IMG/VR virus record: IMGVR_UViG_3300014059_000004
Direction: 5' to 3' (one strand)
Origin: a virus
DNA: 64,000 bases
Part shown: piece by piece, positions 17,944 through 51,631 of the stretch
Numbering within the stretch: the first letter of the stretch is position 1
Layout: each line of letters starts with the position of its first letter
Notes under the pieces: model-generated
The model's database searches: none
What the model was told of the DNA's origin: nothing
The model's input: only the letters and a program-made list of their open reading frames with translations
Program-made: the position numbers and the translations under genes

Positions 17944-18592
17944 GAACAAAGTTGAATTGATTGGACTGTATGGTTCAGATGAAACACATGCACTTAGTGC
18001 ATGGACTTCAACGTCACGTAATTTGACTGATGAAAAAAGAGAACGTATACAACAGTTGCTTAAAATGCTAGCAGACAATGATCATGCTACGCCATTTGAA
18101 AAATCAAGCCTGCATTTTCTTGTGACAACGGACGTGGGATCACACATTCATCTTCTCAAGCATCGCATCGGTGTTTCTATCAACGCTGAATCTGCGCGGT
18201 ACAAAGAATTGAAAGATGACAAGTATTACGTTCCATTTGACTGGGATGTTGAAGAACGAGCTCAATACATTCAACACCTTGAATCTTCGTTGGCACAGTA
18301 CCATGAAGTTCTAGAACGTCTTGTGAAGAAAGGCATGTCAAGGAAGCGAGCAAAAGAATCTGCAAGATTTTACCTGCCGTACGGCAATCAGATCACCGCA
18401 GACGTGATGTTTAACTTCAGAAGCTTCGTTCACTTCTTGGAGCTCAGAAGGTCCAAGCATGCTCAAGCAGAGATCTACAACGTTGCTGATGCAATGCTTC
18501 GTTCAGTCGTCGCGGACGGCCGCTTCAACAAGAGCTTCTTGGCATTTGGATTCATCGACGAGATGGGTAACGTTCTAGAACCGGGAGAGTGA
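17924..18592 (+). CDS. thyX: flavin-dependent thymidylate synthase
   Basis: ThyX signature 'KHRIGVSINAESARY' (RHRxxSxxxxSxR). Confidence 0.8.
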   Translation: MNMSPNENKVELIGLYGSDETHALSAWTSTSRNLTDEKRERIQQLLKMLADNDHATPFEKSSLHFLVTTDVGSHIHLLKHRIGVSINAESARYKELKDDKYYVPFDWDVEERAQYIQHLESSLAQYHEVLERLVKKGMSRKRAKESARFYLPYGNQITADVMFNFRSFVHFLELRRSKHAQAEIYNVADAMLRSVVADGRFNKSFLAFGFIDEMGNVLEPGE

Positions 18593-19176
18593 AAATGGCA
18601 AAGATCATCGTCGTTGAAGGTGCAGATCAGCTTGGAAAAGAAACACAATCTAGGATGCTAGTAGCTTGGCTCATGAGCCAGGGTTACAGAGCTACACGAG
18701 TTGAAGTGCCAGTTCGAGATCACTTCACTTACCCGCTAATCTACAAGATGTTGAAGAATGGATGGGCAAATTCTTACCCAAACCTATTCCAGGCGATCCA
18801 ACATGCTAATCGACTAGCGTTCCAGACGTTCACGCTTCCGAAGCTAGAGCGTGAAAATGATTACGTAGTGTTCGATCGTTGGACGTTGTCGTCGATCATC
18901 TATGGTGATCTGACGTACGCAGATGCTGAGAAAACAAGAGAGAGGATATCTAAGCTGCGCCGAGCCGATCTGACAATCGTGATTCACGGTAAGTCATTTG
19001 GCAAGCGCGGTGATGATGCTTATGAAGCTGATGAAGTATTCCAGAGGATCGTCAACAATCGTTACGTTGATTGGGCCGATGCTCACCTTGCTTGCGCAAA
19101 GGTTTCAAATGCAGGATCTCGTCATGAGGTCCACGAGAAGGTCATCATTGCTGTTAGAGAATCTGGCCTAATTTGA
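18589..19176 (+). CDS. thymidylate/dNMP kinase-like P-loop kinase
   Basis: 'IIVVEGADQLGKETQSRML' Tmk-like P-loop. 'FDRW' substrate-binding region. Confidence 0.5.
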   Translation: MKMAKIIVVEGADQLGKETQSRMLVAWLMSQGYRATRVEVPVRDHFTYPLIYKMLKNGWANSYPNLFQAIQHANRLAFQTFTLPKLERENDYVVFDRWTLSSIIYGDLTYADAEKTRERISKLRRADLTIVIHGKSFGKRGDDAYEADEVFQRIVNNRYVDWADAHLACAKVSNAGSRHEVHEKVIIAVRESGLI

Positions 19177-19536: not shown

Positions 19537-20421
19537 ATGAAAAAGAACGTTGATCGACTGTCAGAGATGTGGGAACAGCAACATGATTTCATGAAGCTGC
19601 TGTGCGAACGTCGTGGCTTTCCTCAATTTCCCGTTGACATGAAGACTAAGGTCGGACAACGATTCTTGAAGGGAATAACGTACGATTGCATGGATGAGCT
19701 GTTTGAAGCCAACCAAGAGCTGAAGAACAGCAAGGGTCATCGTGCAACAGAGATTTCCGAGCTAGATCGTGAAGCGTACGTTGAAGAGCTTGTCGATGCA
19801 CTTCACTACTTCTTTGAGATCGTCATTGCATCAGGTGTGACGCTTGATGAGATGCACGAAGCGTACATGAAAAAAGGTGAAGTCAACCGAAAAAGGATCG
19901 AATCAGGGTACTTAGCCCCTGTACATTGCTTAAGGAGTGTTTTATCATGTCTTCACGAGATTGGTTCTCGTGGAAAGGAAAACATTACTATGCTAACTCG
20001 TTACTATGATACGATGAGAAATCCAACCTACAAGTTCGGTGACTTTAACGCAATCTTTGATGACATGCTTTCAATTGATCCATTTAAGTCAGAATCTTCT
20101 ATCTGGACGAAGAAGATCATGAACAATCTACCAGAACCAACGTTTTGGCATGAGAAGACTGAAGAAGGTTCTGCTCTTCACGTTGAACTACCGGGATACA
20201 AGAAAGAAGACGTATCGATAACGCTGCAAGACAAGACTCTTGTTGTCAAGGCTGAACGTAAGATGCCCGGCGGTGCGAAGACTGTCTCGTGGAGCTGGCG
20301 CATTCAGGATACGTACGAGTCCAATCCAACGTTTGCGAAGCTAGCTGATGGCATCCTTACGATAGGATTGAAGAGTAAACAACCACCACCTGAAGAAGCA
20401 CTCAGCATAAAGATCGAGTAA
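19537..20421 (+). CDS. MazG-like all-alpha NTP pyrophosphohydrolase fused to a small heat-shock protein (alpha-crystallin/Hsp20) domain
   Basis: N-terminal 'DCMDELFEA...EAYVEELVDALHYFFE' EExxE-type MazG motifs. C-terminal 'ALHVELPGYKKEDVSITLQDKTLVVKAERK...ILTIGLK' alpha-crystallin domain. Confidence 0.5.
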   Translation: MKKNVDRLSEMWEQQHDFMKLLCERRGFPQFPVDMKTKVGQRFLKGITYDCMDELFEANQELKNSKGHRATEISELDREAYVEELVDALHYFFEIVIASGVTLDEMHEAYMKKGEVNRKRIESGYLAPVHCLRSVLSCLHEIGSRGKENITMLTRYYDTMRNPTYKFGDFNAIFDDMLSIDPFKSESSIWTKKIMNNLPEPTFWHEKTEEGSALHVELPGYKKEDVSITLQDKTLVVKAERKMPGGAKTVSWSWRIQDTYESNPTFAKLADGILTIGLKSKQPPPEEALSIKIE

Positions 20422-23535: not shown

Positions 23536-23582
23536 ATTTTGGGACAGTGCACTTATTGCACTAACAGTGTTAGGATAAAAGA

Positions 23583-24563: not shown

Positions 24564-24599
24564 CATGTTGCTGTCTGACACGAAAAGGTTTCAGCAACG

Positions 24600-24857: not shown

Positions 24858-24858
24858 C

Positions 24859-25644: not shown

Positions 25645-26513
25645 CGGAGTATTATTCACGCATGCCAAAAATTGCATGGGCCACAGATATCCACCTTGAC
25701 ACTCTGGAGAAAACGCCAGAGAAGATCGTTCAGTTCGCAGAATCGTTGATCGTCGATCAACCAGATGCAATCGTTTTGACGGGTGATCTTTCAACGTACG
25801 CTGATCTAACGTACCACCTGTCTATCATCGAACGTGTTGTCCAGCGACCTGTTTACTTCGTCCTTGGAAATCATGATTTCTGGGGCGGCGGCGTCTCTGA
25901 CGTTCGTCTTGAGATGAAGAACCTCAGCAACATGTCGCAGTTCTTGCGATACTTGCCGAACACTCCGTACGTGACGTTGTCACCAACAACAGCTCTTGTT
26001 GGTCATGACTGTTGGTACGATGCGGGCTACGGGTCACCGATGACAAGCACGATGATCATGAATGACTGGATCAGGGTGAAAGATTTTGCCGTAGAGCACT
26101 GCGTCACGTACGGAGATACGTACGGATCATACAAGACTAACAAACCTAAGGTCATCGAGATCTCGAAGAAGCTAGCGTCTGAAGGTACAGCGCACATCAT
26201 CAATGGCATAAAAACAGCGGCAAAGTATCACAAAGTGATCATGATTGCCACGCACTTTCCACCATTCCAAGAGACTCATCTCTACAATGGTAAAGTTGGC
26301 GATGCAGCTGCACAGCCATGGTACACGAACAAGATGCTCGGTGACGTTCTTCGTCAAGCAGCATCACAGCTTCCAAAGGTCAGGTTTGAGGTCTTTGCTG
26401 GTCACACTCATGGGAAGTGTGACATGCAGATCAGCGACAACTTGTTTGTTCACGTTGGCGAAGCCGAGTACAAGCAACCACGCTTGCAGAATGTCATCAC
26501 GGTGCCTTTATGA
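25605..26513 (+). CDS. calcineurin-like metallophosphoesterase (alternative start 25662 'MPKIAW')
   Basis: 'DIHLD', 'LTGDLSTY' and 'VLGNHDFW' metallophosphatase motifs. Confidence 0.6.
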   Translation: MPDAASVGKNVRITEYYSRMPKIAWATDIHLDTLEKTPEKIVQFAESLIVDQPDAIVLTGDLSTYADLTYHLSIIERVVQRPVYFVLGNHDFWGGGVSDVRLEMKNLSNMSQFLRYLPNTPYVTLSPTTALVGHDCWYDAGYGSPMTSTMIMNDWIRVKDFAVEHCVTYGDTYGSYKTNKPKVIEISKKLASEGTAHIINGIKTAAKYHKVIMIATHFPPFQETHLYNGKVGDAAAQPWYTNKMLGDVLRQAASQLPKVRFEVFAGHTHGKCDMQISDNLFVHVGEAEYKQPRLQNVITVPL

Positions 26514-27337
26514 GCTCGCCATGGTACGTTGAAACATTCAACGACGGCGTTGCAATAAGAGCAGATTCAACGCAGCCGGCTTTGATGGATTACGTCAAAG
26601 AGCTAGCTGGACCAGTCCCATTGATCATCGCTGATCCACCGTACGGAAATGTCGTGAAAGACAAGTGGGATCGAGTTGATGATACAGCTGATGCTTTTGC
26701 AGGCTGGATGACTTCTTGGACGCATGCATGGAAAGATGCATGCCTCGCTCCAGGAGCAGCTTTCTACGTGTGGGGCGGAATTGGATCACCAGGCTTCAGG
26801 CCTTTCTTTGCTTACGTCATGAAAGCAGAGGTTGAGGGCAAATTTGAGCTAGCTAACTTGATAACTTGGAAGAAGCGTCGTGCGTATGGGTTGAAGTACA
26901 ACTACCTCTTCACACGAGAAGAGTGCGCGTACTTTGTTAACGGCACGTCGAAAGCACCTCGAAAGTTCAACATTCCGTTGCTCGATGAGAAGCGTGGTTA
27001 CAGCGGGTACAACAAGAAGTACCCAGCAAAGAGCGAGTTCTACCGCAGGTCAAACGTGTGGACTGACATCAATGAGATCATGCATGGAAAGTTTCATCCC
27101 ACAGAGAAGAAGCAACGATTGCACGAGATCATGATAGAAGTTCACACAGATCCGGGTGAGTGGGTCGTCGATCCGTTCGCTGGATCTGGTGTCACGGCTT
27201 TTGCAGCCAGAAAATTGGGAAGAAAATTTGTGATCATTGAATCAGACCCGGCGTACTTTGATTCCACGGTCCGCCGCCTCCGCGGCAACAACGTAAAGGA
27301 AGAAAACACAGATGAACGATCAACAGACGAACCTTGA
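26510..27337 (+). CDS. DNA N6-adenine/N4-cytosine methyltransferase (beta class)
   Basis: Catalytic 'IIADPPYG'. AdoMet motif 'VVDPFAGSGVTAFAA' at the C-terminus. Confidence 0.7.
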   Translation: MSSPWYVETFNDGVAIRADSTQPALMDYVKELAGPVPLIIADPPYGNVVKDKWDRVDDTADAFAGWMTSWTHAWKDACLAPGAAFYVWGGIGSPGFRPFFAYVMKAEVEGKFELANLITWKKRRAYGLKYNYLFTREECAYFVNGTSKAPRKFNIPLLDEKRGYSGYNKKYPAKSEFYRRSNVWTDINEIMHGKFHPTEKKQRLHEIMIEVHTDPGEWVVDPFAGSGVTAFAARKLGRKFVIIESDPAYFDSTVRRLRGNNVKEENTDERSTDEP

Positions 27338-33340: not shown

Positions 33341-34351
33341 ATGTCGAAGAAAGTTCTGATCACGGGTATCGCTGGTTTTCTTGGTTCGCATCTTGCGTTG
33401 CATCACATCGCAGCCGGTGATGAGGTGATCGGTCTGGATGATTTCTCTTCGTCGAAGAGAGATTCTCTTCATCTTGCTACGATCAAGCGCCTCATGGCAG
33501 AGAAGAAGTTGGGGGAAGTCTATGAGTGCGACATTGCAGAGCAGAAGCAGGTTCATTACTGCTTGCAGAAGCACGCAATGAAAAAGTCACCAGCGGGAAT
33601 TGATCTGATCTATAACTTCGCTTGCCCTGCTTCACCGCCTCGATACCAACAGATTCCAACGAAGACGATGATGACATGCGTGGCCGGAACTAACAACATC
33701 ATCGACGTTGCTATGTGTAACAATTCTGTAGTTGTGCACGCCTCAACGTCTGAAGTGTACGGCGATCCGGATATCACTCCTCAAGTTGAATCTTATAGGG
33801 GTTGCGTGAACCCTTACGGTCCCCGAGCATGCTACGATGAAGGCAAGCGCGCAGCAGAAGCGTTGTGCTACGATTCTCTTTTCAAGTACGGCGTAGACGT
33901 ACGTCTCGTTAGAATATTCAACACGTATGGCCCTCATCTTGATGTAACAGACGGACGTGTAGTTTCAAACTTTATAACTCAAGCCTTGTACAACAAAGAT
34001 ATCACAATCTATGGTGATGGTTCTCAAACAAGGTCATTTTGTTACGTAGATGATCTGATACGTGGAATTGTTTCTTTGGGAGCCTTGAGCTACAATCCAA
34101 AAACGCCCATTAATTTGGGAAATCCAAATGAGTTTACCATTAAAGAACTTGCAGATGTTGTTATGTCTTTGATTCCAAGTAGCAAATCAAAATTTGTATG
34201 GCAGTCCATACCTATTGATGATCCACTTCAGAGAAAACCAGATATTACTATAGCGAAAGAAATTCTTAAATGGCAACCGAGTGTGCAATTGCTGGAAGGT
34301 CTTCAGAAGACGATACACTACATTCAGAACGTGAATGTGCAATTTACGTGA
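33341..34351 (+). CDS. NAD-dependent sugar-nucleotide epimerase/dehydratase (UDP-glucuronate decarboxylase-like SDR)
   Basis: 'VLITGIAGFLGSHL' Rossmann motif. 'TSEVYGDP'. Catalytic 'YDEGK' (YxxxK). Confidence 0.65.
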   Translation: MSKKVLITGIAGFLGSHLALHHIAAGDEVIGLDDFSSSKRDSLHLATIKRLMAEKKLGEVYECDIAEQKQVHYCLQKHAMKKSPAGIDLIYNFACPASPPRYQQIPTKTMMTCVAGTNNIIDVAMCNNSVVVHASTSEVYGDPDITPQVESYRGCVNPYGPRACYDEGKRAAEALCYDSLFKYGVDVRLVRIFNTYGPHLDVTDGRVVSNFITQALYNKDITIYGDGSQTRSFCYVDDLIRGIVSLGALSYNPKTPINLGNPNEFTIKELADVVMSLIPSSKSKFVWQSIPIDDPLQRKPDITIAKEILKWQPSVQLLEGLQKTIHYIQNVNVQFT

Positions 34352-41609: not shown

Positions 41610-42173
41610 ATGAACAATCGTCCATCCTATTGGTCTAAGTCAGTTGCGGAAAAAGTGGTTGAATCTCTCATGCCCGACATCTTCAAGCTGGTCGGAGAAG
41701 ATGCAAAAGAAGATCAGCAGTACGTAGATGACATGAAAGAAGATTTGCTCAGAGCTATTGATCTCGAAGATGATGAGTATCGCATCTGCAGGAACCTAGA
41801 ACGTTCAACGTGGGAAGTTGATTCAGCATTGTATGATATCATGAGCAAGGTTGCGTACTTGCGCACAAAGCACCATTATACTGAAGAAAAGGAATGGGTG
41901 AAACAGCATTCGATTAATCTCGAATATTCTGTGGGCCAACGAGTGACCTTCAAGAAGCCTAATGGGACCCAGGTTGAGGGTGAGGTGATCAAGCTGCATG
42001 AGGATCGTGCTTCATACACTGTCTACTGCGAAAGTGAAGGTCACGTGAGGTCTGGTGTCGGAACACACGGCCTTGTTATCGCTGCCGAAGATTTGGCTCT
42101 CGTCCAAGAAGAGCGCCGGTCGAATTTTAGCGTCGTTTCTCCGGGCGTTGGGTCTAGAGAGAATGACGTCTGA
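41610..42173 (+). CDS. hypothetical protein
   Basis: 187-aa ORF. Confidence 0.3.
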   Translation: MNNRPSYWSKSVAEKVVESLMPDIFKLVGEDAKEDQQYVDDMKEDLLRAIDLEDDEYRICRNLERSTWEVDSALYDIMSKVAYLRTKHHYTEEKEWVKQHSINLEYSVGQRVTFKKPNGTQVEGEVIKLHEDRASYTVYCESEGHVRSGVGTHGLVIAAEDLALVQEERRSNFSVVSPGVGSRENDV

Positions 42174-42378
42174 GGATCTTGTTCAGATCGATTGTCCAAT
42201 TTGCGGGTGTCTATTCTGGTCGTTCAACCCAGAAAAATGGACTGTTAACAGGAAGGTTTGTTCACGGTGCTGGAAGCTAGCGAAACCAGCGTTCATTGAA
42301 TCAATGCTTGAAAGCTTGAGTCATTTTTCTGTGAACAGGAATGATGCTACGTAGTAGTATGATCCGAAAGAAGGAAAC

Positions 42379-42924
42379 GTGACGTCAGAGCAAAAAATAG
42401 TGATGATATGTGGTCCTGATATGACGGGAAAAACTCAAATTGCGCAAGAGTTGTCGCGTCGAACAGGGCTTCCGTACTTCAAAGCAACATCAGAGCACAC
42501 TTCATTCTTGTCTTCAAGAGTTTCAAAGAACGATCAGTTTTTGAGCCAGCTACGATTTGCAGATCCACGAGTCCTTGACTTGCTGCGGCAAACGGGACAC
42601 AGCGTCATATTTGATCGCGCGTATCCTTGCGAGTATTCGTACTCCAAGGTGTTGGGCCGTGAAACTGACATGAAGATGCTCTACCACGTTGACGAAGCAT
42701 GGGCTAACATTGGCGCCCGCGTCGTTCTGTGTCATCGATCATCGTACGTTGGCATTGAAGATGACTTGGATCCAACTATCAACGCTGAGGTTCTTCAAAA
42801 GCTTCACGATGAGTACTTCACTTTTGCATCATGGACGAAGACGAAGCTTCTGAAGCTTAACGTTGATGATGAAGATCTAGAGCGTGAGATGCGAGAGGTT
42901 CTTGCATTCATCAAGGGATTATAA
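42379..42924 (+). CDS. P-loop kinase (dNMP kinase-like; candidate modified-nucleotide kinase)
   Basis: 'IVMICGPDMTGKTQIAQEL' Walker A. 'FDRAYP' substrate loop. Confidence 0.45.
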   Translation: MTSEQKIVMICGPDMTGKTQIAQELSRRTGLPYFKATSEHTSFLSSRVSKNDQFLSQLRFADPRVLDLLRQTGHSVIFDRAYPCEYSYSKVLGRETDMKMLYHVDEAWANIGARVVLCHRSSYVGIEDDLDPTINAEVLQKLHDEYFTFASWTKTKLLKLNVDDEDLEREMREVLAFIKGL

Positions 42925-43607
42925 TGGCAAAGATCATAAACTACGATTCTGAATTTTTTGACGACGGCAGGAAGTACTTCGCTCGCGGCCTTCCGGCATG
43001 GAAGGACTTCGTCTTGAAGGATTTGAAAGCCACGTCGATTGCCGATTTTGGCTGCGGTCAAGGTGATTGGCTCGAACCTCTTGAAGGCATCATCCCGATC
43101 TGGTGCTGCGACGGTTATGCTGACATGACAGCATTGAGAGTCAACCAATCAAACTTCAGAAAGATAGACATCGGAACTGTGAAGCCTAGCACGCTTGATG
43201 TTGGCCCACGTGACGTTGTCATGTCGCTTGAAGCGATGGAGCACGTTTGCAACGTTCATGAAGGCAATTTCTTGGACTGCATGCTGCTGCCAAATCCTCG
43301 CATCGTTGTTTTTGGTGTTGCATCTGGTCGTGGCACTTACGATCCCAACCAAGGAAAGATCAATCGTTTGGGCGAATTCGTCCCGGGTGGTCCTGATTGG
43401 CTGCCGCAGTTCGGACGTCACCACGTGAACTGTCAACCGGTCTCTGTCGTTGAGGGAAAGATGCTGAAGAGAGGCTACGTTGTAGATCCCGTTCTTACAT
43501 CAAAGTTTTCCAACTTGAGAGTTCCAGGGCGCAACAAGAAGGGTCGCTTTGCGTTCGCTTCTTTCTACAGGAAGAACACTCGAGTTTACGTAAAGGCTTC
43601 CCAATGA
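42924..43607 (+). CDS. class I SAM-dependent methyltransferase
   Basis: Motif I 'IADFGCGQGDW'. ATGA-coupled to the upstream kinase. Confidence 0.55.
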   Translation: MAKIINYDSEFFDDGRKYFARGLPAWKDFVLKDLKATSIADFGCGQGDWLEPLEGIIPIWCCDGYADMTALRVNQSNFRKIDIGTVKPSTLDVGPRDVVMSLEAMEHVCNVHEGNFLDCMLLPNPRIVVFGVASGRGTYDPNQGKINRLGEFVPGGPDWLPQFGRHHVNCQPVSVVEGKMLKRGYVVDPVLTSKFSNLRVPGRNKKGRFAFASFYRKNTRVYVKASQ

Positions 43608-43906
43608 GCATTGTCATAGCTGTTCTAACGTACATTATAGCTGTCGTACCCGTCTTCGTGATTGGTTTCATCATCGGAGACATACGACGAGACATTGCTG
43701 CGATCAGGGTGATGAGCTCTGAAAGGATGACAACGGCTACTGATCTGATGAACATTCATGGGCTGATATCTTCTGGCAACGTTCAAGCTGCCGATGAATA
43801 CGTCAACAGCACATTTTACTCAATTGCTGCTCATGATCTAACAACGCCACGTCGCATACCAAACTTGATCACAGCTTCACCGGATTGCAATGACGACGAA
43901 CACTAA
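43604..43906 (+). CDS. small membrane protein
   Basis: N-terminal TM 'IVIAVLTYIIAVVPVFVIGFIIG'. Confidence 0.3.
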   Translation: MSIVIAVLTYIIAVVPVFVIGFIIGDIRRDIAAIRVMSSERMTTATDLMNIHGLISSGNVQAADEYVNSTFYSIAAHDLTTPRRIPNLITASPDCNDDEH

Positions 43907-44408
43907 ACCATGCCCAGGGTGTTCGATCGAAATTCCAACGTGCGTGAATAGATGCTGGGATTGCGGCATAGCCAACGCAATAGAAGCTGGAGGCAAGTTT
44001 TACTGCCCAAACGAGCTGCCTGTTGGTTGCATCAAAGCTGACGGCAACATGTTTGAACACGAGCATGGTGATCATCCAGATTACAAGTTCCCTGTTAACG
44101 TTGAGTACGTTGGACCTCTGAAGATAGGTCACGTGTCAGACTATGCTACCATGATATCATCTGACGTTGAAGAGCAAAATCTAACGCTCGAAACTTTTGA
44201 CGAGGCAGAAGTTAGAGCCACGATGGGTGAGGTACATGCGCTAGTTTACACTGACGGCATCGTTGCATTGACGCTCTACGAGTACACGTACGCTCTGTGG
44301 CTCCTTGAAGATGGCGGCAAACCAATCTGCGATCAACGTTACTGGAAGAAACCTGAGTGGAGGCTTTCAGAGGCTTCGATTGAAAAGATAAAGGTGTTGA
44401 AAAGATGA
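43890..44408 (+). CDS. hypothetical Cys-rich protein
   Basis: 'CPGCSIEIPTCVNRCWDCG' Zn-ribbon-like N-terminus. Confidence 0.3.
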   Translation: MTTNTKPCPGCSIEIPTCVNRCWDCGIANAIEAGGKFYCPNELPVGCIKADGNMFEHEHGDHPDYKFPVNVEYVGPLKIGHVSDYATMISSDVEEQNLTLETFDEAEVRATMGEVHALVYTDGIVALTLYEYTYALWLLEDGGKPICDQRYWKKPEWRLSEASIEKIKVLKR

Positions 44409-44761
44409 GCAGAAGCAAAATTTGGATCGAGCTGCATTATGCTATGCTCGATGGCCGCGAAGAGTGCGTTCCCGAGTCGATAGGATGGACAAATGGGCAC
44501 ATATTCTTCAAGACCGGTCGTGCTTCAACAAGGATTAAAGCTCCGGCGTCATGGACTTTTGATGAACTAGATGGTTCGTACGATCGTGAAGCATGCGTTC
44601 AACATACTGTTGATCAAATCAGAGAAGAGATTGCTTCTGATTATGGTGAGAATCTGTTGAAGTCAATGGTTGGTCGGATGTTCGATCAAGCCAAGGCTCA
44701 CTGCGACGCAGAACACCAAGAGTACAGGAAGCAGAGCAATCCGGGCAGAAAAGGACATTGA
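44405..44761 (+). CDS. hypothetical protein
   Basis: 118-aa ORF. Confidence 0.3.
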   Translation: MSRSKIWIELHYAMLDGREECVPESIGWTNGHIFFKTGRASTRIKAPASWTFDELDGSYDREACVQHTVDQIREEIASDYGENLLKSMVGRMFDQAKAHCDAEHQEYRKQSNPGRKGH

Positions 44762-45679
44762 TTATAATGGGACAAAAACGACTTTTGATTCAAACTTGAT
44801 AGTGAGCAACGACACAAGTGCTGCTGATGTCATCGTTAGTGACTCTTTGTCTGTGATTCGCAGCAACTTCATGTTATGCTTTGCAAACCAGTGTTCCTGA
44901 GCACGATCGACATGCCATTTTCCAACGATGCTCTCAGATCGAGGCGAACCAGATTTGATATGTTCTTCGAGAGGTCGATCTAGTCCATGCCAATAGACGC
45001 CATCAACTTGAATCCAGACATCAATTGATTTAACGTAGAAGTCAATAGGCCAGTTTGTTCCTATGGGTTTGTGTTGACGTTCGATGTCATTGACACCAAA
45101 TAGTTCAACAAGAAGTTCGTGCATGCGATCTTCTGCTTTTGATTTTCGATACGAATTATTACGCTTCATAGATTCATGGTTCTTACGGACAGCTTCTTGC
45201 CAGTTAACACGAGCATATACTTCTGGTATTGCCAAAGCACTCTTAACGCCATAACGTTTCATGAATGTTTCTATTCGCTTTGTTTTTACTGCTGCAATTT
45301 GAATCACATTTTCAACGCCATATTTTTCAACATTATTTTTACGTCGTAGTTTTTTATGTTCTTCTACTTGCATAGGACTAACAGAACCGAATTTCTTAAG
45401 AGACGTAGCACGTCGTTTTGCTTCGACATCTGGATGTTGTGAGGGGCGCACAGTTCCCCAACGTGATACCCACGTCTGTTCAGCTAGCACCCTGATCAAT
45501 CCACCTGATTGCATGCCAACACCGAAGCAGCTTCTAGAGCACCAATGAGTTGTTCTATTGATATCACGTGATCTTCTTTTACTTTCATATTCTGCGCTGC
45601 ATGCATCGCAACGTAGTTTTATAGACACGATCTTTACGCTTCCGTTTTTCGCTTGTTTAGATGTCACTGTAAGAATCAT
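44762..45679 (-). CDS. free-standing homing endonuclease (Vsr-like), minus strand
   Basis: 'CDACSAEY' Zn-finger. Repeated basic modules. 'IDFYVKSIDVWIQVDGVYWHG' Vsr-like motif. Confidence 0.5.
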   Translation of the reverse strand: MILTVTSKQAKNGSVKIVSIKLRCDACSAEYESKRRSRDINRTTHWCSRSCFGVGMQSGGLIRVLAEQTWVSRWGTVRPSQHPDVEAKRRATSLKKFGSVSPMQVEEHKKLRRKNNVEKYGVENVIQIAAVKTKRIETFMKRYGVKSALAIPEVYARVNWQEAVRKNHESMKRNNSYRKSKAEDRMHELLVELFGVNDIERQHKPIGTNWPIDFYVKSIDVWIQVDGVYWHGLDRPLEEHIKSGSPRSESIVGKWHVDRAQEHWFAKHNMKLLRITDKESLTMTSAALVSLLTIKFESKVVFVPL

Positions 45680-45717
45680 TATATGTACCTATGTCGTTTA
45701 CAATATAGAGTATATGC

Positions 45718-47073
45718 ATGAAAAGACTCCTGATAGAGACGCAGTTGTCAAATTATGATGTGAATGGGAAATTTATCCTAGAATGTGATTCAGGGTGGAA
45801 TATGGTCATGGGTCGCGTAAGGGTGATGCTTCAGCTGAACCCAGAGCTGCACATCACAGTGATGATCCCGCAGCTTGGTGATGACGGCAGAAAGAGACAA
45901 GTTGTAACTGATCCCTGGGATGTGTACCCAGATCTTTGGGATCGTTACGGTGCAGATGGTGATAATCGTCTAGCGTTCTTTGAGCACAACATCATCGGAA
46001 ATGCTCTTGTGACTCGTTATGATTTTGACTGGACGGGTCTAGCTGTCGGTCTAAATCTCGGGATGCAGAAGTTGAGCCGCGCTCCCAAGTGGGACGCAGT
46101 TTACATCAACGATCCAATGCATCTAAGAGCTTTCAAGGCGATGTTCCACGTTGTTGGTGGATACCAACCCAAGTTTTTCGTGCATTCCCACTTCGTGGAT
46201 GTGCCATCATGTCCAAAGTTTCCAGCCGAAGCGTCGCTGTGGCTCGGTCAATGCGAAGCAGCGATGAAAGCCGATTGGAACTTCTGGCAGTGCGAATCTG
46301 CGTTGGCAGAGTTTGAAGTTGAAGCCAGGAAGCTTTACAGAGATGAAGTTGTTCAAAAGATCCTCGAAAAGTCTTCACCGTGGGATGACGGATACTCTCG
46401 AGAAGAGATCACATCACTAGTCAACTTCGACAATCTTAGGTTTGATGTCAACCTGGTCGAGAAGCTGCAATCAGCCGGCAAGAAGATCATCTTTGTCCCG
46501 AACCGTATCGGTGAAGCAGGGGTGTCTAGCGACTACACGAACTGCGGCAAGTTCATGTTTGACATCTTGCCAAAGCTTCACAATCGTCGCCAAGACTTCG
46601 TTGTCATTGCTGGAAATCCCAGCCAGAAGATCTCTAACTCTAGCTTGCAAGATCGCTGCGGCCGTCACGGCTACGTGTCTCTTGTCTCTGGCCCGCTTAA
46701 CAGAGATGAATTCAAGTACATAGCCTCCAGAGCTGAGATATCTGTTGGGTTGTACGATCAGGACACGTACGGTGGAACGGCTGCTAGAGAATGCACAGAA
46801 TTGGGATGTATACCTTTTTGGATTTCTTGTAATGAATATTCTAAGCTGGCTCGAGATGCAGGAGGGCACCCTTTCATGGGCTCGCCAGACTTTTCTGATG
46901 CACCAGACGTGCTGAGCAAGTTGCTCGATGAGTTCAGCGAGCTGAGAGCTCACACCGTCGACATGAATGATCTTCGTGAACGTCTCCGTGATGCTGTTAG
47001 AGCTCGGTGCTCTTACGAGGTGACGACGCTTTCAGCAATGCGGAAGATGAACTTGCTCTGCAACGTCGACTAA
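45718..47073 (+). CDS. putative GT-B-fold glycosyltransferase
   Basis: 'KIIFVPNRIGEAG...VVIAGNP' and 'GGTAARECTELGCIPF' resemble the GT-B C-terminal nucleotide-sugar-binding motif. Weak. Confidence 0.35.
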   Translation: MKRLLIETQLSNYDVNGKFILECDSGWNMVMGRVRVMLQLNPELHITVMIPQLGDDGRKRQVVTDPWDVYPDLWDRYGADGDNRLAFFEHNIIGNALVTRYDFDWTGLAVGLNLGMQKLSRAPKWDAVYINDPMHLRAFKAMFHVVGGYQPKFFVHSHFVDVPSCPKFPAEASLWLGQCEAAMKADWNFWQCESALAEFEVEARKLYRDEVVQKILEKSSPWDDGYSREEITSLVNFDNLRFDVNLVEKLQSAGKKIIFVPNRIGEAGVSSDYTNCGKFMFDILPKLHNRRQDFVVIAGNPSQKISNSSLQDRCGRHGYVSLVSGPLNRDEFKYIASRAEISVGLYDQDTYGGTAARECTELGCIPFWISCNEYSKLARDAGGHPFMGSPDFSDAPDVLSKLLDEFSELRAHTVDMNDLRERLRDAVRARCSYEVTTLSAMRKMNLLCNVD

Positions 47074-47118
47074 CACGCTGTACATTAGCCCTGTAGGTGG
47101 GTATAGTCTTACCTAGAC

Positions 47119-48087
47119 ATGAAAGTCCTCATAACTGGCTACGCAGGGTTCATTGGTTCAAATTTGACAGCAGCATGCGTAGCTGCTGGTTGGACAGTTA
47201 CTGGTGCTGATGATTTTTCTAATGGGCACGCAGAATTTTTGAGCGATTCAACTCTTCGAGAAATTCGTGAATTTAAGTGTGATTTTTCTGATGAAGCAGT
47301 TCTTCAGAAGATCAGGGACAAAGAGTTTGACGTTGTCATCCATCTTGCTGCTGTTCCAAGAGTTTCGTACTCTGTGGAGCATCCGTTTGAAACGAACGAT
47401 GCAAACGTCACGAAGACGCTGAAGTTGCTGGAAGCATGCAGAGGAAACATCACACGGTTCGTCTTTGCTTCATCTTCTTCAGTGTACGGCGGCGCTCTTA
47501 AGCTACCCACGCATGAGAGCGAAGAGAAGAATCCCAAGTCGCCGTACGCGCTTCAGAAATCTATCATCGAAGATTACTTGACGTTGTACAAGACGTTCTA
47601 CGGTCTAGATTCTGTCTCCTTGAGGTTCTTCAACGTCTTTGGACCCAACGCGCTGGGTGGTTCTCCGTACGCAACTGCGCTCGCCGCGTGGTTGACGGCC
47701 ATCAAGAAGGGTGAACCGCTTCGCTTCGATGGTGACGGCTCTCAATCAAGAGACTTGTGTTACGTTGACAACGTTGTTGATGCATGCATGAAGGCCGCAA
47801 CAGCGCAGCTTCCATCTGCTGAAGCGCATCGATTCAACGTAGCATGTGGAACTGAAGTATCCAACAACGACATCATTCTTTACCTTCTGAAGCGTTACGG
47901 CGGGTTCAAGCTCAACGTCGCGCCTACACGGCCAGGTGATGTGAAGCGAACGCTAGCAAACATCAGCGGTGCATCAGTTTACCTTGCGTACAGCGTAAAA
48001 GTTCCTGTTTGGGAAGGTATTGCTCGCACATGCGATTGGTACGACAACAATTGGGACTGGGCAAAGAACCTAAAGCTTAACGTCTGA
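47119..48087 (+). CDS. NAD-dependent UDP-sugar 4-epimerase-like SDR
   Basis: 'VLITGYAGFIGSNL', 'FASSSSVYGG' and 'YALQKS' (YxxxK). Confidence 0.65.
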   Translation: MKVLITGYAGFIGSNLTAACVAAGWTVTGADDFSNGHAEFLSDSTLREIREFKCDFSDEAVLQKIRDKEFDVVIHLAAVPRVSYSVEHPFETNDANVTKTLKLLEACRGNITRFVFASSSSVYGGALKLPTHESEEKNPKSPYALQKSIIEDYLTLYKTFYGLDSVSLRFFNVFGPNALGGSPYATALAAWLTAIKKGEPLRFDGDGSQSRDLCYVDNVVDACMKAATAQLPSAEAHRFNVACGTEVSNNDIILYLLKRYGGFKLNVAPTRPGDVKRTLANISGASVYLAYSVKVPVWEGIARTCDWYDNNWDWAKNLKLNV

Positions 48088-48237
48088 TGAAATCAGATCA
48101 TCATGTCCACTTTATGCTATGGGTGCTGTTGCTGTTCACAATCGTTCTGTCGATCGTTGACATTAGGGCACACAATGAGATGAAGGTGAGAATTCAAACG
48201 CTAGAAGACAAGGTGCTGGACCTGGAGATGAAGACGA

Positions 48238-48897
48238 ATGATACGAATTGAGCATAGAGTCAGCGATGTTCGGAGTTGGTTCCGTGAGCTAAAAGCATCT
48301 GGCGAGCACGTGACCGACAAAACAGGTTGCAAGATGATTGAGGTCATAGGTGCAACGTTCATTGCGGATGAAGAAGCTATCTTTGGGACCGTGAACAGGG
48401 ACTACGCAGCTAGGGAGATCGAGTGGTACAAGTCTATGTCTCTTAACGTTCATGATATCCCTGGCGGTGCACCTGCTGCTTGGGTTGCATGCGCTACACC
48501 TAACGGTGAGATCAACTCGAACTATGGTTATCTTATCTGGAGCCCTGAGAATCACGATCAGTACAGCAACGTTCTAGCTGAACTTCGTCGAGCTCCAGAA
48601 AGCCGACGCGCAGAGATGGTGTACACGCGTCCTTCGATCTGGAAAGATTACAACCGTAGCGGGATGAGCGACTTCATCTGTACTGATTCAGTCCAGTACT
48701 TCGTCAGAAATGGAGAGCTGGTTGCTGACGTTCGCATGAGGTCGAACGATGTCTTGTATGGATATCGCAACGACCGCGTCTGGCAAGATTTTGTTCACAA
48801 GCAGCTTGCTAACGATTTGGGCGTCAAAGTTGGTCCCATGATTTGGCATGCGGGTTCTTTGCACGTATACGAAAAGCATTGGCACTTGGTTGAATAG
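48238..48897 (+). CDS. thymidylate synthase (ThyA)-family enzyme, probably a dUMP/dCMP hydroxymethylase-type paralog
   Basis: 'DKTGCKMIEVIGATF' (compare ThyA 'DRTGTGTLSVFG'). Catalytic-Cys region 'DFICTDSVQYFV'. 'RMRSNDVLYG' (compare 'QRSCDVFLG'). '...GSLHVYEKH' (compare 'GDTHLYSNH'). Confidence 0.55.
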   Translation: MIRIEHRVSDVRSWFRELKASGEHVTDKTGCKMIEVIGATFIADEEAIFGTVNRDYAAREIEWYKSMSLNVHDIPGGAPAAWVACATPNGEINSNYGYLIWSPENHDQYSNVLAELRRAPESRRAEMVYTRPSIWKDYNRSGMSDFICTDSVQYFVRNGELVADVRMRSNDVLYGYRNDRVWQDFVHKQLANDLGVKVGPMIWHAGSLHVYEKHWHLVE

Positions 48898-49074
48898 CAT
48901 GGCAAAGCAAAAAGGAGATCAGCTACCATCGATTGAGAAGATGTTCGAGGTAGCAGTAAGAAGCGTCGTTGAGCTCGGTGAGATGCTCGGGTTGAGCATT
49001 GATCAAGTGGTTGAGCTCATAAAAGTAGCCTGGCAGACTGAAGTGAACTACAAAGAAGAAAAGGAGAATGGAAA

Positions 49075-49632
49075 ATGACTGTTATTGTTGGCGTCGTTGA
49101 GGGAAAGAACGTTTGGCTCGGTGGTGATCGTGCAGCAACTGGTGGCGGTCTAGACAGGGTTCTCTTGAAGCATCCGAAGATCTTCTTGAAGAACGGCATC
49201 GGCGTTGGTGTTTGCGGGTTGCCAAAGGTCATGGATGCTATCAAGCATGGCATCGAATTCCCGCCGCACGAGAGCGGTTCTGCGAAGGACTATCTTGTCA
49301 GCAAGTGGGTACCTGCGATCCGCGAAGGTTTGAAGAAGTTTGATTGCACTGAGGAGCATCGTGGTCAGCACTACTTCCACGGTGCGCTACTCATTGCATA
49401 CAGGGGTGAGCTGCACGAGCTCGAGGGAAACTTCCAGCTCGTTGAGAGTGCTCGTGGTTACGCTTCTGTTGGCTCTGGATCCCCTGCAGCGTTGGGTGCA
49501 TTGAAGGCTTCGAAGGGCGTGGGGCCGGCGAAGAAGAGAGTTCTGGATTCTCTCAAGGCTGCCGCAGAAGAGAATGCCGGGTGCGCTCCTCCGTTCGACA
49601 CGCTTGTCGTTGTCGGATTACTAGTGTTCTAG
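49075..49632 (+). CDS. HslV/ClpQ-like Ntn-hydrolase (proteasome beta-type peptidase)
   Basis: 'MTVIVGVVEGKNVWLGGDRAATGGG' (compare HslV '[23 protein letters not shown]'). 'VGSGSPAALGALKA' (compare 'IGSGGPYAQAAARAL'). Confidence 0.5.
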   Translation: MTVIVGVVEGKNVWLGGDRAATGGGLDRVLLKHPKIFLKNGIGVGVCGLPKVMDAIKHGIEFPPHESGSAKDYLVSKWVPAIREGLKKFDCTEEHRGQHYFHGALLIAYRGELHELEGNFQLVESARGYASVGSGSPAALGALKASKGVGPAKKRVLDSLKAAAEENAGCAPPFDTLVVVGLLVF

Positions 49633-49651: not shown

Positions 49652-50221
49652 ATGAGCAAGCAAGCTAATCCAACATTCGTGATGTACGTCGGACCCATGT
49701 GGTCATCAAAATCATCTCGATTGTTGATGGAGCTTGAGCGTTGCAAGTACCAGAAGAGAAACGCTCTAGTTTTCAAGCCTGCGATAGATGATCGCTACTC
49801 TACGTCTCAGATCGTGACGCACGGTGGTTGGCGTCACGATGCAGTCACTGTCAATAACGCAGAAGGTATTCTTGCGAAAGTTCTTGAAGAGCAGAACAAC
49901 GACATTAGCATCATCGCAGTAGATGAAGCTTTCATGATTAACGGCGTTGCTGATGCTTTGACGTTCTTGTACAGGAACGGCTACAACATCATAGTGTCAA
50001 CGCTTGACACTGCATTCAATGGTAAGCCGTTCGATGAAGTGACAAAGATGCTGCCTTGGGCAACGTCAATAGAGAAGTGCTCAGCAGTGTGCACGATCTG
50101 CTCGCAAGATGCTCATTTTACGTACAAGAAGAGCGAAGATGAAACGTTGCTTGAAGTTGGCGGGCACGAGCTATACGAGCCGCGTTGCTTGCGATGTCAT
50201 CCTTTCATAGTGCTAACATGA
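49652..50221 (+). CDS. tdk: thymidine kinase
   Basis: 'MYVGPMWSSKSS' P-loop. C-terminal Zn ribbon 'CAVCTICS...CLRCH'. Confidence 0.75.
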   Translation: MSKQANPTFVMYVGPMWSSKSSRLLMELERCKYQKRNALVFKPAIDDRYSTSQIVTHGGWRHDAVTVNNAEGILAKVLEEQNNDISIIAVDEAFMINGVADALTFLYRNGYNIIVSTLDTAFNGKPFDEVTKMLPWATSIEKCSAVCTICSQDAHFTYKKSEDETLLEVGGHELYEPRCLRCHPFIVLT

Positions 50222-51504
50222 TTCAATCTGAAATAGATTTGTGTCCTATTTGTCATGGCAAAAAAAAGTCAAAAAATGATTACTGTTCAAAAACATGCTT
50301 CCAGAAAAGCAAACGAGTCACCATTAAATGCGTTCAATGTAATTCTGCATTCAATGTTTTGAAGTGTTATGCTGACAATGGAAGAAAGTTTTGTTCAAGA
50401 AAATGTAGCGCTTTGCACAACAAAGCTGAACAAAAATCTATAACGCATGTTCAAGTAAATTGCTCTTGGTGTAACAAAACAAATTTTCGTTATCGTTCAA
50501 CAATTGTTGCGCATGCAAATTGTTTTTGTGGTAGAGAATGTTATCTAGCATTTCATTCACAAAATAAAATTGTAGTGCAATGCAGTGGAAAAGATTGTTC
50601 AAACTTTGTGAAAAGCAATCTGAAACATCATTATGATCGTTATTGTTCTCGTGATTGTTACAAAAGATCTTACGAACCAGAAAATTTTAACAAGAACTTT
50701 CTTAAAGGAAGATACAAGTCAACAAAGGCTGGAACAGTTCATTACGATTCTAGCTATGAGCTACGAAGATTCAAAGAACTGGATTTTGACAATACAGTTC
50801 TAGCATGGGGTAGATGTAAAGATAAAATTCTTTGGTCTGATGAAGAAGGTAATGCACACTATTACAATCCTGATCTCTTCATCAATTATGACTCTAATAT
50901 CGTGGTCGTTGAAGAGATTAAGGGCTACGTTAATGAACATACGAATAAAAAGATCGAAGCCGCTAGATCTTTTTATTCCAACAAGAACATTGAATTTCGC
51001 GTGATTTATGAACGCGATCTTGAACCTATTGAAAAAATTCATGAATACTATGAAAATGACATAGGCACATTCAGTAGATCGTCATATGATTCTATTTGGA
51101 TGCATGTTGCAGTTGCATTTGCAAAAAGATCAACATGTTGCAGATTGCGAGTTGGCGCAGTTTTTGTTGATCAACATAATGAACGCGTTCTATGCCTGGG
51201 CTACAATGGATCAAATTCTGGAGGGCTTAATGGCTGTGATTCCCTAACACCAGGTTCTTGTGGTTGCATTCATGCAGAAATTAATGCCATTTCTCACGCA
51301 TCTGAATCTCTTGAAAATTCCACAGTTTACGTAACTACATCTCCATGCATAATGTGTGCAAAAAGTCTAATTAACAGTCGAGTTGGAAGAATCGTGTACT
51401 TGCAAAAGTACAGAAATTCAACTGGTGTAAAATTGCTTCGTGAAGCTGGAATTCAAGTTGATTCTTATCAGGATCTAGTAGATTTCTCAAATGAATCAAG
51501 ATGA
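50185..51504 (+). CDS. in-frame fusion: Zn-finger/PD-(D/E)xK homing-endonuclease-like N-terminal region plus dCMP deaminase (deaminase could start independently at M 51100)
   Basis: N-terminal multiple CxxC motifs and 'YNPDLFINYDSNIVVVEEIKG'. C-terminal 'MHVAVAFAKRSTCC...VGAVFV' and 'CIHAEINAI...SPCIMCAKSLIN' deaminase motifs. Confidence 0.55.
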   Translation: MLAMSSFHSANMIQSEIDLCPICHGKKKSKNDYCSKTCFQKSKRVTIKCVQCNSAFNVLKCYADNGRKFCSRKCSALHNKAEQKSITHVQVNCSWCNKTNFRYRSTIVAHANCFCGRECYLAFHSQNKIVVQCSGKDCSNFVKSNLKHHYDRYCSRDCYKRSYEPENFNKNFLKGRYKSTKAGTVHYDSSYELRRFKELDFDNTVLAWGRCKDKILWSDEEGNAHYYNPDLFINYDSNIVVVEEIKGYVNEHTNKKIEAARSFYSNKNIEFRVIYERDLEPIEKIHEYYENDIGTFSRSSYDSIWMHVAVAFAKRSTCCRLRVGAVFVDQHNERVLCLGYNGSNSGGLNGCDSLTPGSCGCIHAEINAISHASESLENSTVYVTTSPCIMCAKSLINSRVGRIVYLQKYRNSTGVKLLREAGIQVDSYQDLVDFSNESR

Positions 51505-51631
51505 TCATCAACGCTGGAATCTCTAGGGTCGTGTATGACATCCAGTACAGGGATTCGTCAGGTCTTGTCTTGCTGCAATCAGTTGGTATTGAAGTCATGA
51601 GAACATCGGACGCAATACTTACATCGAGAAC

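Follow-up and report, generated by a model that had tools for sequence, protein, structure and literature searches.

Does this virus replace cytosine in its DNA with a glycosylated derivative, and which of its enzymes would do so? The question is raised by a run of genes in the 64,000-nt window (the whole stretch of DNA analyzed) that an earlier note had read as a DNA hypermodification cluster. All of the ORFs named in that note are present on the plus strand where it had placed them, with homologies far above chance (Table 1). The ThyA-fold protein coexists with a bona fide ThyX, Tdk and a dCMP deaminase domain (PF00383, E 5e-23) lie near the cluster, the fold of the class I SAM methyltransferase was confirmed, and an N6A/N4C DNA methyltransferase is encoded elsewhere in the window. 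The central reading, a glycosylated hydroxymethyl-pyrimidine produced by a ThyA-family hydroxymethylase, a glycosyltransferase (GT), and sugar-nucleotide enzymes, was supported by all computational tests run; its acceptor and its sugar are what we infer. The source is an uncultured large phage, probably of jumbo size.

Table 1. Features of the cluster and related genes in the window
Coordinates	Strand	Assignment	Matches
17924..18592	+	ThyX flavin-dependent thymidylate synthase	PF02511 E 2.2e-33
18589..19176	+	Thymidylate kinase-like protein	PF02223 E 4.3e-8; phrog_761 E 1.1e-12
19537..20421	+	All-alpha NTP pyrophosphohydrolase (T-even gp56 family) fused to Hsp20, candidate dCTPase	phrog_12184, phrog_173
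26510..27337	+	N6/N4 DNA methyltransferase	PF01555 E 1.2e-29
33341..34351	+	UDP-glucuronate decarboxylase (UDP-xylose synthase, UXS), accessory	human UXS1 E 3e-83
41610..42173	+	Conserved 187-aa protein, 5' edge of cluster	phrog_17597 (unknown function) E 2e-5
42379..42924	+	Tmk/dNK-like P-loop (deoxy)nucleotide kinase, putative hmdCMP kinase	phrog_761 E 1.1e-8
42924..43607	+	Class I SAM-dependent methyltransferase, small-molecule type, accessory	
43604..44761	+	Three small ORFs (100, 172, and 118 aa) between methyltransferase and GT	
44762..45679	-	Free-standing homing endonuclease, outside pathway	phrog_3339 E 4e-19; DUF7487
45718..47073	+	GT-B fold, GT4-like glycosyltransferase, putative hmC-DNA glycosyltransferase	
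47119..48087	+	NAD-dependent UDP-sugar 4-epimerase, WbgU/WbpP/GalE-like extended SDR	PF01370 E 6.9e-53
48238..48897	+	Predicted dCMP hydroxymethylase, T4 gp42 type, ThyA superfamily	PDB 1b49/1b5e E 1.1e-70
49652..50221	+	Thymidine kinase (Tdk)	PF00265 E 1.2e-41
50185..51504	+	Homing-endonuclease-like (TnsA-like) N-terminal part joined to dCMP deaminase domain	PF08722, PF00383

Conservation of the cluster

The gene order kinase-GT-epimerase-hydroxymethylase was kept in 30 related metagenomic loci on contigs of up to ~370 kb (25 of the loci from IMG/VR), with GT identities as low as 38%. In all of the loci whose upstream sequence extended far enough (28 of 30), the kinase was upstream of the GT, and in many it was directly adjacent to it. 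No GT-bearing locus with enough flank lacked the hydroxymethylase (24 of 25 from IMG/VR and 29 of 30 overall; the remaining contig, L014, ends too early), and since every such locus has it, co-occurrence of the two genes provides no independent signal. The conserved block also contains genes unrelated to DNA modification, for an HslV-like peptidase and SOD, so the synteny may stem from a gene order frozen in this lineage instead of from a functional link. The pathway ORFs are all intact and are strongly conserved, even between contigs whose remaining sequence diverges by up to 60%. Only four genes occur throughout the lineage, those for the kinase, GT, epimerase, and hydroxymethylase; the UXS and the methyltransferase are accessory. 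The 187-aa protein has homologs at 32 to 42% identity in some related loci, and the three small ORFs are kept in close relatives only. In family profile searches, these ORFs had no matches except a sub-threshold zinc-ribbon match for the 172-aa ORF (PF18256 HscB_4_cys, E 0.0021, 18.3 bits versus a cutoff of 26.2).

Megablast and tblastn searches of 50,697 phage records found no match to the cluster or the GT and no cultured relative, and the DnaE protein reached no more than 30% identity to any of those records. The closest relative found, L002, shows 88 to 96% DNA identity over aligned segments and 96 to 97% identity in the GT protein. In this window alone, the cluster is split by a homing-endonuclease insertion of 946 bp (44794-45739), which has no counterpart in L002, L003, or L007 (relatives that are 93 to 98% identical). 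Inteins and homing endonucleases also inflate the dnaE region, and it is only for this reason that the UXS gene lies 8 kb upstream of the cluster; in L002, dnaE alone stands between the two.

A ThyA homolog of the T4 gp42 type

The ThyA homolog aligned with T4 dCMP hydroxymethylase (PDB 1b49) over residues 21 to 219 at ~55% identity and also matched PF00303 (the ThyA/thymidylate-synthase fold; 65.6 bits, cutoff 24.3) and phrog_160 (E 2e-51). Its active site was checked in an alignment numbered after E. coli ThyA, with RB69 gp48 as a control. In this alignment the catalytic Cys is in place (E. coli C146, T4 C148), and the phosphate-binding Arg and Ser residues (R126, R127, R166, and S167), as well as Y94, E58, W80, H207, and Y209, are all conserved; the Arg quartet and D169 are kept too. 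The loss of the catalytic Cys or of folate-binding residues, by which the earlier note would have been refuted, is thus not seen. The SDFIC and RND motifs reveal two substitutions, L143D and N177D, and D169 is retained, whereas RB69 gp48 has N169. C146, L143D, D169, and N177D are common to the window and all 29 related loci with the gene (L014 ends before it). According to a published residue rule, N177D marks a preference for dCMP over dUMP, and a change of L143 to Asp or Glu gives water access and hence a hydroxymethylating rather than a methylating enzyme; all tested 5hoC synthases carry N169 (Lee et al. 2026, PMC13326640). N177D thus points to cytosine rather than uracil as the base, and the retained D169 predicts a hydroxymethyl rather than a 5-hydroxy product. 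Because the catalytic Cys, L143D, N177D, and D169 are all present, we assigned the protein to the hmC type; sequence evidence strongly supports a dCMP hydroxymethylase of the T4 gp42 type, predicted to make 5hmdCMP. The earlier note had allowed either a dUMP or a dCMP hydroxymethylase, and of these options the dCMP enzyme is favored and the uracil (hmU) side falls away.

A flavin-type 5-hydroxy-dCMP synthase like that of RB69 was considered and rejected, as neither the window nor any of the 29 related loci with the gene shows the D169-to-Asn signature. More generally, we consider it very unlikely that the homolog is something other than an hmC synthase, be it an enzyme making 5-hydroxy-dCMP, one making hmdUMP, or a second thymidylate synthase. 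RB69 gp48 was long annotated as a dCMP hydroxymethylase until its chemistry was corrected, and residue-based predictions can fail. However, the protein described here is only 27% identical to gp48, compared to 55% for T4 gp42; the residues at positions 143, 169, and 177 all argue for a hydroxymethylating enzyme acting on dCMP; dTMP is already supplied by ThyX; and the RB69 arabinose-pathway genes are all missing from the window and the related loci.

A predicted route to glycosylated hmC

A T-even-style replacement of cytosine, in which hmdCTP would be synthesized ahead of replication and the hmC incorporated into DNA would then be glycosylated, appears probable to us. The pool would be cleared by the pyrophosphohydrolase encoded at 19537 and the dCMP deaminase, which would limit dCTP while providing dCMP and dUMP. 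The N-terminal domain of the former matched phrog_12184 (E 1.7e-14) and phrog_173 (E 2.3e-9), the gp56 family to which RB69 gp56 dCTPase was assigned (E 1e-45), and aligned with RB69 gp56 itself over 61 residues (BLASTP, E 6e-6); the Pfam matches of the ORF are PF08761 and PF00011. The deaminase domain occupies residues ~300 to 439 of its ORF (PF00383 at 302 to 406, PF08722 at 215 to 276) and is a stand-alone protein of 145 aa in relatives. With dTMP coming from ThyX, the ThyA homolog would be left free to convert dCMP and CH2-THF to 5-hydroxymethyl-dCMP, a step with strong sequence support. The kinase encoded at 42379 could then take the role of T4 gp1 and yield hmdCDP. It belongs to phrog_761 ("thymidylate kinase"), in agreement with its earlier description as dNMP-kinase-like, and this PHROG also holds the RB69 cluster kinase RB69p045 (BLASTP, E 1e-5). 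A 19-sequence profile of the kinase gave deoxyguanosine kinase 2jas as the best PDB match (E 1.7e-4), with YorR at E 0.014. No gp1-type dNMP kinase (phrog_139) was found in the 64-kb window (tblastn with RB69 gp1, best E 0.6), and both window kinases, at 42379 and 18589, fall in phrog_761. Host NDK would convert hmdCDP to hmdCTP, which the phage DnaE polymerase would insert instead of C.

After replication, the GT would move a sugar from a UDP-sugar onto the DNA, at the hydroxymethyl group of hmC. The GT-B resemblance previously suggested for this protein was borne out: it has a GT-B fold with two Rossmann-like domains and is GT4-like. Its structural neighbors are BshA, 6kih, and 2gej, the nearest acting on small molecules or lipids, and it had no Pfam, PHROG, or NCBIfam match. 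By our reading of the alignment, the invariant motifs PNR (261-263), GNPxxK (299-304), and GGTxxRE (352-358) resemble GT4 donor-site motifs, but the GT4 motif EX7E lacks its canonical first Glu. The donor would come from the adjacent 4-epimerase, which would invert C4 of a host UDP-sugar. This protein aligned with WbgU (E 2.7e-47) through GYAGFIGSNL (the GxxGxxG NAD motif), ASSSSVYG, and SPYALQK (YxxxK); it keeps the catalytic S/Y/K triad, lacks the D-E pair of dehydratases, and may act on the UDP form of Glc, GlcNAc, GlcA, or Xyl. The SDR at 33341, earlier called UXS-like, is a true UDP-xylose synthase: it matched human UXS1 over its full length (the next-best non-UXS SDR was at E 8e-26), and its catalytic T/S-E, YxxxK, and Arg motifs (ASTSEVYGDP, CYDEGKR, and GSQTR(S/A)F) align exactly with the human enzyme. 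It may offer an additional route, turning host UDP-glucuronate into UDP-xylose, from which the epimerase could give UDP-L-arabinose, although no UDP-glucose dehydrogenase was found among the scanned window ORFs. Given these two routes, the sugar would be either a hexose derivative in the galacto configuration or a pentose, possibly an unusual one. The UXS gene was found in ~10 lineage contigs, always upstream of dnaE, and was not detected in many relatives. More speculatively, the accessory methyltransferase might methylate the sugar. If this pathway operates, its purpose would be protection against restriction and CRISPR nucleases.

An alternative that we regard as rather unlikely is that hmC DNA is made but that sugar transfer by the GT, together with the epimerase and UXS, is directed at something other than DNA, for example at virion proteins or glycans of the host envelope; hmC would then be bare or modified by other enzymes, and adjacency would reflect conserved gene order only. 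This would fit the unrelated genes (HslV-like, SOD, and Tdk) in the syntenic block across all loci, the patchy occurrence of the UXS and the methyltransferase within the lineage, the substrates of the GT's nearest structural neighbors, and the wide spread of UXS and GT4 enzymes among capsid-glycosylating viruses (UXS homologs gave 571 matches in viral contigs, including giant viruses in which they serve capsid glycans). However, the GT is a single one, in a replication and nucleotide-metabolism region that runs on one strand, the inserted endonuclease aside, and flippase, polymerase, and lipid-carrier genes are absent from the scanned ORFs. Moreover, the cited phages with ThyA-homolog-derived hmC or hoC (T-even, RB69, DLP3, and RL38J1) glycosylate the base via GT-B enzymes with the same structural neighbors, and activity of a GT with a partner epimerase on 5hmC has already been demonstrated (Pyle et al. 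2024, bioRxiv 10.1101/2023.12.21.572611). That there is no functional hypermodification at all, with the genes as remnants or moonlighting in nucleotide salvage and the virion DNA canonical, seems very unlikely. Homing endonucleases and inteins throughout the region do indicate high mobile-element traffic, but the pathway ORFs are intact and strongly conserved (mean column identities of 61% for the GT and 75% for the methyltransferase across related loci), with invariant catalytic residues.

Relation to known systems

The probable route, glycosylation of hmC made before replication, resembles the T-even glucosyl-hmC pathway, which consists of gp56 dCTPase, gp42 hydroxymethylase, gp1 dNMP kinase, and alpha- and beta-glucosyltransferases. 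The hydroxymethylase is an ortholog-level match with all diagnostic residues, and a gp56-family pyrophosphohydrolase, a dCMP deaminase, and Tdk are encoded in this phage. Unlike the T-even phages, it has a Tmk/dNK-like kinase in the cluster in place of a gp1-type enzyme in the window, a GT that is nearest to GT4 enzymes and shares no sequence similarity with AGT or BGT, ThyX instead of a ThyA-type td, and DnaE instead of a family B polymerase. It also encodes a 4-epimerase and a UXS, whereas T-even phages use host UDP-glucose directly.

RB69, DLP3, HY126, and RL38J1 carry clusters for arabinosyl- or hexosyl-5-hydroxycytosine, and in the experimentally characterized clusters of RB69, DLP3, and RL38J1 a Tmk-like kinase, a GT, and a ThyA homolog adjoin (Lee et al. 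2026, PMC13326640). The cluster described here, known from its genes, likewise combines a Tmk-like kinase, a GT4-like GT-B enzyme, and a ThyA homolog; it shares with them the kinase PHROG, the GT structural neighbors, and a phage-encoded NDP-sugar supply. The differences are the retained D169, which predicts a hydroxymethyl rather than a hydroxy group, and the sugar supply, which would use SDR enzymes (UXS and 4-epimerase) on UDP-sugars. The RB69/DLP3 arabinose pathway (Ara5P isomerase, bifunctional kinase/uridylyltransferase AfhE, and HAD phosphatase AfhF) had no significant match in the window and related loci (tblastn with RB69p050-055).

In gene arrangement, the GT adjoining a sugar epimerase resembles the "subclass II" pairs of metagenomic phages, in which GT activity on 5hmC is strictly epimerase dependent and yields adducts of Hex, HexNAc, or HexA; the survey in that paper noted that GT-B enzymes also occur close to ThyA homologs and epimerases (Pyle et al. 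2024, bioRxiv 10.1101/2023.12.21.572611). The tested pathways make 5hmC after replication, by a C5-methyltransferase and a TET-like dioxygenase, for which the scanned cluster and other window ORFs had no Pfam match; here a gp42-type enzyme is predicted to act before replication. No pentose or UXS was reported there (xylose, pentose, and decarboxylase have 0 occurrences in the paper). With epimerase-dependent 5hmC GTs and GT-B genes beside ThyA homologs (Lee et al. 2026) already reported, the enzyme combination that had been called distinctive is less unprecedented than claimed. The strategy itself is known, and the cluster would represent a variant of T4-like DNA glycosylation.

A gp42-type hydroxymethylase among enzymes of nucleotide metabolism

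All of the ORFs named in the earlier note were present on the plus strand at the positions listed below. Sequence or structure prediction identified a gp42-type hydroxymethylase, a GT-B transferase, a 4-epimerase, a UDP-xylose synthase (UXS), and a SAM methyltransferase, as well as Tmk-like kinases, ThyX, thymidine kinase (Tdk), dCMP deaminase, and a gp56-family pyrophosphohydrolase.

Features of the window discussed in the text
Feature	Coordinates	Strand	Matches or remarks
dUTPase gene	7193-9079		apparent intein split
DnaB-like helicase gene	10019-13116		apparent intein split
ThyX	17924-18592	+	
Tmk-like kinase	18589-19176	+	
Candidate dCTPase	19537-20421		PF08761 + PF00011; phrog_12184, phrog_432, phrog_173
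Apparent RNA-repair cassette	21299-26513		RlaP nucleotidyltransferase (PF10127), DUF7873 (E 1e-102), polynucleotide kinase-phosphatase (AAA_33 + HAD_PNKP), RNA ligase (PF09414), metallophosphoesterase
N6/N4 DNA methyltransferase	26510-27337	+	
UXS	33341-34351	+	human UXS1, E 3e-83, full length
dnaE	36130-41183		apparent intein split
P-loop kinase	42379-42924	+	only AAA_28 and phrog_761 "thymidylate kinase"
Methyltransferase	42924-43607	+	Methyltransf_23, below threshold
Homing endonuclease	44762-45679	-	phrog_3339, DUF7487
451-aa protein (GT)	45718-47073	+	no sequence-based family assignment
NAD-dependent epimerase	47119-48087	+	PF01370, E 6.9e-53
ThyA fold	48238-48897	+	PF00303, 65.6 bits (cutoff 24.3); phrog_160, E 2e-51
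HslV-like peptidase	49075-49632		same early block
Thymidine kinase	49652-50221	+	
dCMP deaminase	C-terminal third of 50185-51504	+	
Fe/Mn superoxide dismutase (SOD)	51930-52646		same early block
Carbon-nitrogen hydrolase	56701-57456		same early block
Nudix hydrolase	62916-63407		same early block

When the PDB was searched with phmmer, the best match of the ThyA homolog was T4 deoxycytidylate hydroxymethylase (1b49/1b5e; E = 1.1e-70, ~55% identity); ordinary thymidylate synthases reached only ~1e-10. Flavin-using synthesis of 5-hydroxy-dCMP has been demonstrated for the "gp42-like" enzymes of RB69, DLP3, Thanatos, and RL38J1, and the same work sets out, in E. coli ThyA numbering, rules by which N177D denotes cytosine specificity, L143D/E denotes a product other than methyl, and D169N is diagnostic of 5-hydroxy enzymes (Lee et al., NAR 2026, PMC13326640). 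Our alignment comprised the window protein, E. coli ThyA, T4 gp42, RB69 gp48, and the homologs encoded by those 29 related metagenomic loci in which the gene occurs. Because the window protein carried C146, L143D, N177D, and D169, the same as T4 gp42, whereas RB69 gp48 had N169 and was only 27% identical to it, we predict from these residues that it is a folate-dependent dCMP hydroxymethylase, and synthesis of hmC by the phage seems very probable. We rejected an RB69-type 5-hydroxycytosine product because of D169 and because tblastn found no arabinose-pathway genes in the window or the related loci. The earlier note had proposed a ThyA-fold hydroxymethylase leading to either hmU or hmC; the enzyme itself held up, with its catalytic Cys and folate-site residues retained, and it is predicted to be of the cytosine type, N177D being our reason for rejecting hmU.

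Two clades of hydroxymethylase occupied the same syntenic slot among the related loci, one with 48 to 99% identity to the window enzyme (L002-L010, L012, L013, L015-L017, L020, and L024) and the other with 25 to 32% (L011, L018, L019, L021-L023, and L025-L031). Both carried C146, L143D, D169, and N177D, the hmC signature, which suggests a replacement that was either non-orthologous or very old and that kept the chemistry. Two divergent Asp169 clades in one slot offer a natural set of enzymes on which the D169/N169 rule could usefully be tested.

The kinase of the cluster had no significant phmmer match in the PDB, and neither it nor the methyltransferase matched NCBIfam. A 19-sequence profile of the kinase weakly matched deoxyguanosine kinase and YorR, the latter being the match given for the DLP3 cluster kinase (PMC13326640). 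The PHROG of the window kinase (761) also includes the RB69 cluster's own kinase, RB69p045 (pairwise BLASTP E = 1e-5). No gp1-type dNMP kinase was found in the window. The candidate dCTPase, so called from its sequence matches, is an all-alpha NTP pyrophosphohydrolase that matches phrog_173, to which the T-even dCTPase gp56 belongs; the fusion of this MazG/gp56-family domain to an Hsp20 alpha-crystallin domain is unusual. Elsewhere in the window, the N6/N4 DNA methyltransferase gene comes after the apparent RNA-repair cassette, and a tRNA scan found none.

The glycosyltransferase and its sugar-nucleotide enzymes

Searches of Pfam, PHROG, and NCBIfam with the 451-aa protein gave no match. It had 397 homologs, all metagenomic, on contigs of up to 351 kb, and the best 120 of these showed 55 to 97% identity. 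An AlphaFold2 model built from a 36-sequence alignment (pLDDT 92.4, pTM 0.90) has a GT-B fold. Foldseek comparison with viral models returned phage glycosyltransferases; these included Bacillus phage SP-15 glycosyltransferases and a protein of cyanophage S-TIM5 whose annotation is DNA alpha-GT. The structural neighbors given for the DLP3 and RB69 DNA arabinosyltransferases are BshA (under another PDB entry), 6kih, and 2gej (PMC13326640). We infer that the acceptor of the window enzyme is DNA; if this prediction is right, the protein represents a sequence-novel DNA glycosyltransferase family of ~400 members with no Pfam or PHROG model. A second GT, a UDP-glucose dehydrogenase, and a TET/C5-MTase were not found among the other window ORFs scanned.

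The adjoining epimerase was closest to 4-epimerases of the WbgU/WbpP and GalE types, and its NAD motif, catalytic Ser, and YxxxK aligned with theirs; these alignments place it in the 4-epimerase family. The second SDR is, as judged by homology, a UDP-xylose synthase: the catalytic motifs STSEVYGDP, CYDEGKR, and SQTR-F were conserved, and the next-best SDR class scored 1e-26. NCBIfam holds no UXS-specific model. An IMG/VR scan yielded 571 confirmed UXS matches in viral contigs, including giant-virus MAGs (alignment A4); UXS alone is therefore no marker of DNA modification. With the best 80 of the 571 scan matches taken into account, UXS was detected in ~10 contigs of this lineage and lay upstream of dnaE in each of them. 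Our literature search on UXS in phage DNA modification found no paper.

Lineage, synteny, and mobile elements

Neither the cluster (megablast) nor the GT (tblastn) had a match among 50,697 phage records, and thus no annotated relative was usable. DnaE was at most 30% identical to that of any cultured phage (tblastn), and the window has no cultured relative. We discarded a link to the "moraphage" lineage of aquatic jumbo phages, as PMC12619734 has no mention of hydroxymethylase, epimerase, or DnaE.

The order GT, epimerase, hydroxymethylase, (HslV-like), Tdk, dCMP deaminase, SOD was conserved in 30/30 related loci as far as the contigs extend, even at GT identities down to 38%. The kinase lay upstream of GT in all 28 loci that extend far enough, and the methyltransferase was present in about a third of the loci. 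SOD and HslV were syntenic with the modification genes throughout the lineage. In the closest relative found (L002; 88 to 96% DNA identity over aligned segments), only dnaE separates UXS from the cluster; the gap in the window is 8 kb, stretched by inteins and homing endonucleases. Since unrelated genes also lie in the syntenic block and every GT-bearing locus with sufficient flank had the hydroxymethylase, the synteny is consistent with functional coupling and is not proof of it.

Several mobile elements were apparent. The free-standing homing endonuclease gene lies between a 118-aa ORF and the GT gene; positions 44794-45739, which include GT codons 1 to ~7, have no counterpart in L002, L003, and L007 (93 to 98% identity), where those two genes are directly consecutive. 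L007, an 87%-identical relative, has a ~1-kb insertion (3154-4186) inside its GT gene near the C-terminal domain, corresponding to window 46817-46834, which may be an intein or a further mobile element. At 50222-51635, a cassette stands in place of the 145-aa dCMP deaminase that is resident in close relatives. Its zinc-finger/TnsA-like endonuclease part runs in frame into a divergent deaminase, which shares only ~42% identity with the relatives' version, between flanking genes of 96 to 100% identity; ~139 bp from the 3' end of the original gene still follow (51497-51635), and this looks like a homing-endonuclease-driven allele replacement. The intein splits in the table, read from translations only, were marked, for example, by "...VHNC" junctions and an interrupted dUTPase motif (PGCID | CDYRG); homing-endonuclease ORFs lie near these genes, and dnaE of the relatives had Intein_splicing Pfam matches.

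Proposed pathway and comparison with known systems

In the scheme that we propose, dCTP would be depleted and dCMP converted to hmdCMP, which the kinase and host NDK would raise to hmdCTP for incorporation by DnaE. The GT would then glycosylate hmC in DNA after replication, using a UDP-sugar epimerized at C4 by the phage enzyme, and the methyltransferase might decorate the sugar. We consider this scheme in full, DNA being the acceptor, somewhat likely. Where UXS is present, UDP-xylose or UDP-L-arabinose could serve as donor, although a pentose is on balance an unlikely identity for the sugar. Also doubtful is the fuller reading in which C in this uncultured DnaE-type lineage is replaced by pentosylated hmC. 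The pentose, xylosyl or L-arabinopyranosyl, would derive from host UDP-glucuronate through UXS and the 4-epimerase, and would be O-methylated in some members by the accessory SAM methyltransferase; relatives lacking UXS would use a galacto-configured hexose on the same GT scaffold. To our knowledge, neither a pentosylated hmC base nor a sugar supply through UXS and a 4-epimerase has been described for any DNA.

That the cluster is an uncharacterized variant of a known anti-restriction strategy is well supported. What sets it apart is its sequence-novel GT family, a donor supply based on SDR enzymes with optional UXS and methyltransferase, and the fact that a large uncultured phage lineage carries it. 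If the scheme is true, pre-replicative hmC glycosylation would extend beyond T-even phages to a large, uncultured DnaE lineage with contigs of ~370 kb at most, and a sugar-nucleotide route built on SDR enzymes (the 4-epimerase, alone or together with UXS) would join the known means of phage DNA glycan diversification. How sensitive a phage is to restriction, CRISPR, and type IV systems depends on such modifications, which also bias sequencing and cloning in metagenomics.

As predicted here, the cluster would share its working principle with the T-even glucosyl-hmC pathway, of whose hydroxymethylase family its enzyme is a member, but the window has no gp1, and its GT is outside the AGT/BGT families. 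In architecture it resembles the kinase-GT-ThyA clusters of RB69, DLP3, and RL38J1, from which it differs in carrying Asp rather than Asn at position 169 and in having no arabinose genes. GT-B enzymes adjoining ThyA homologs and epimerases were noted in the survey of Pyle et al. 2024 (10.1101/2023.12.21.572611), whose epimerase-dependent GTs acting on 5hmC share with the window a GT next to a sugar epimerase; in contrast, their tested pathways make hmC post-replicatively, by TET-type enzymes, and no pentose or UXS was reported there.
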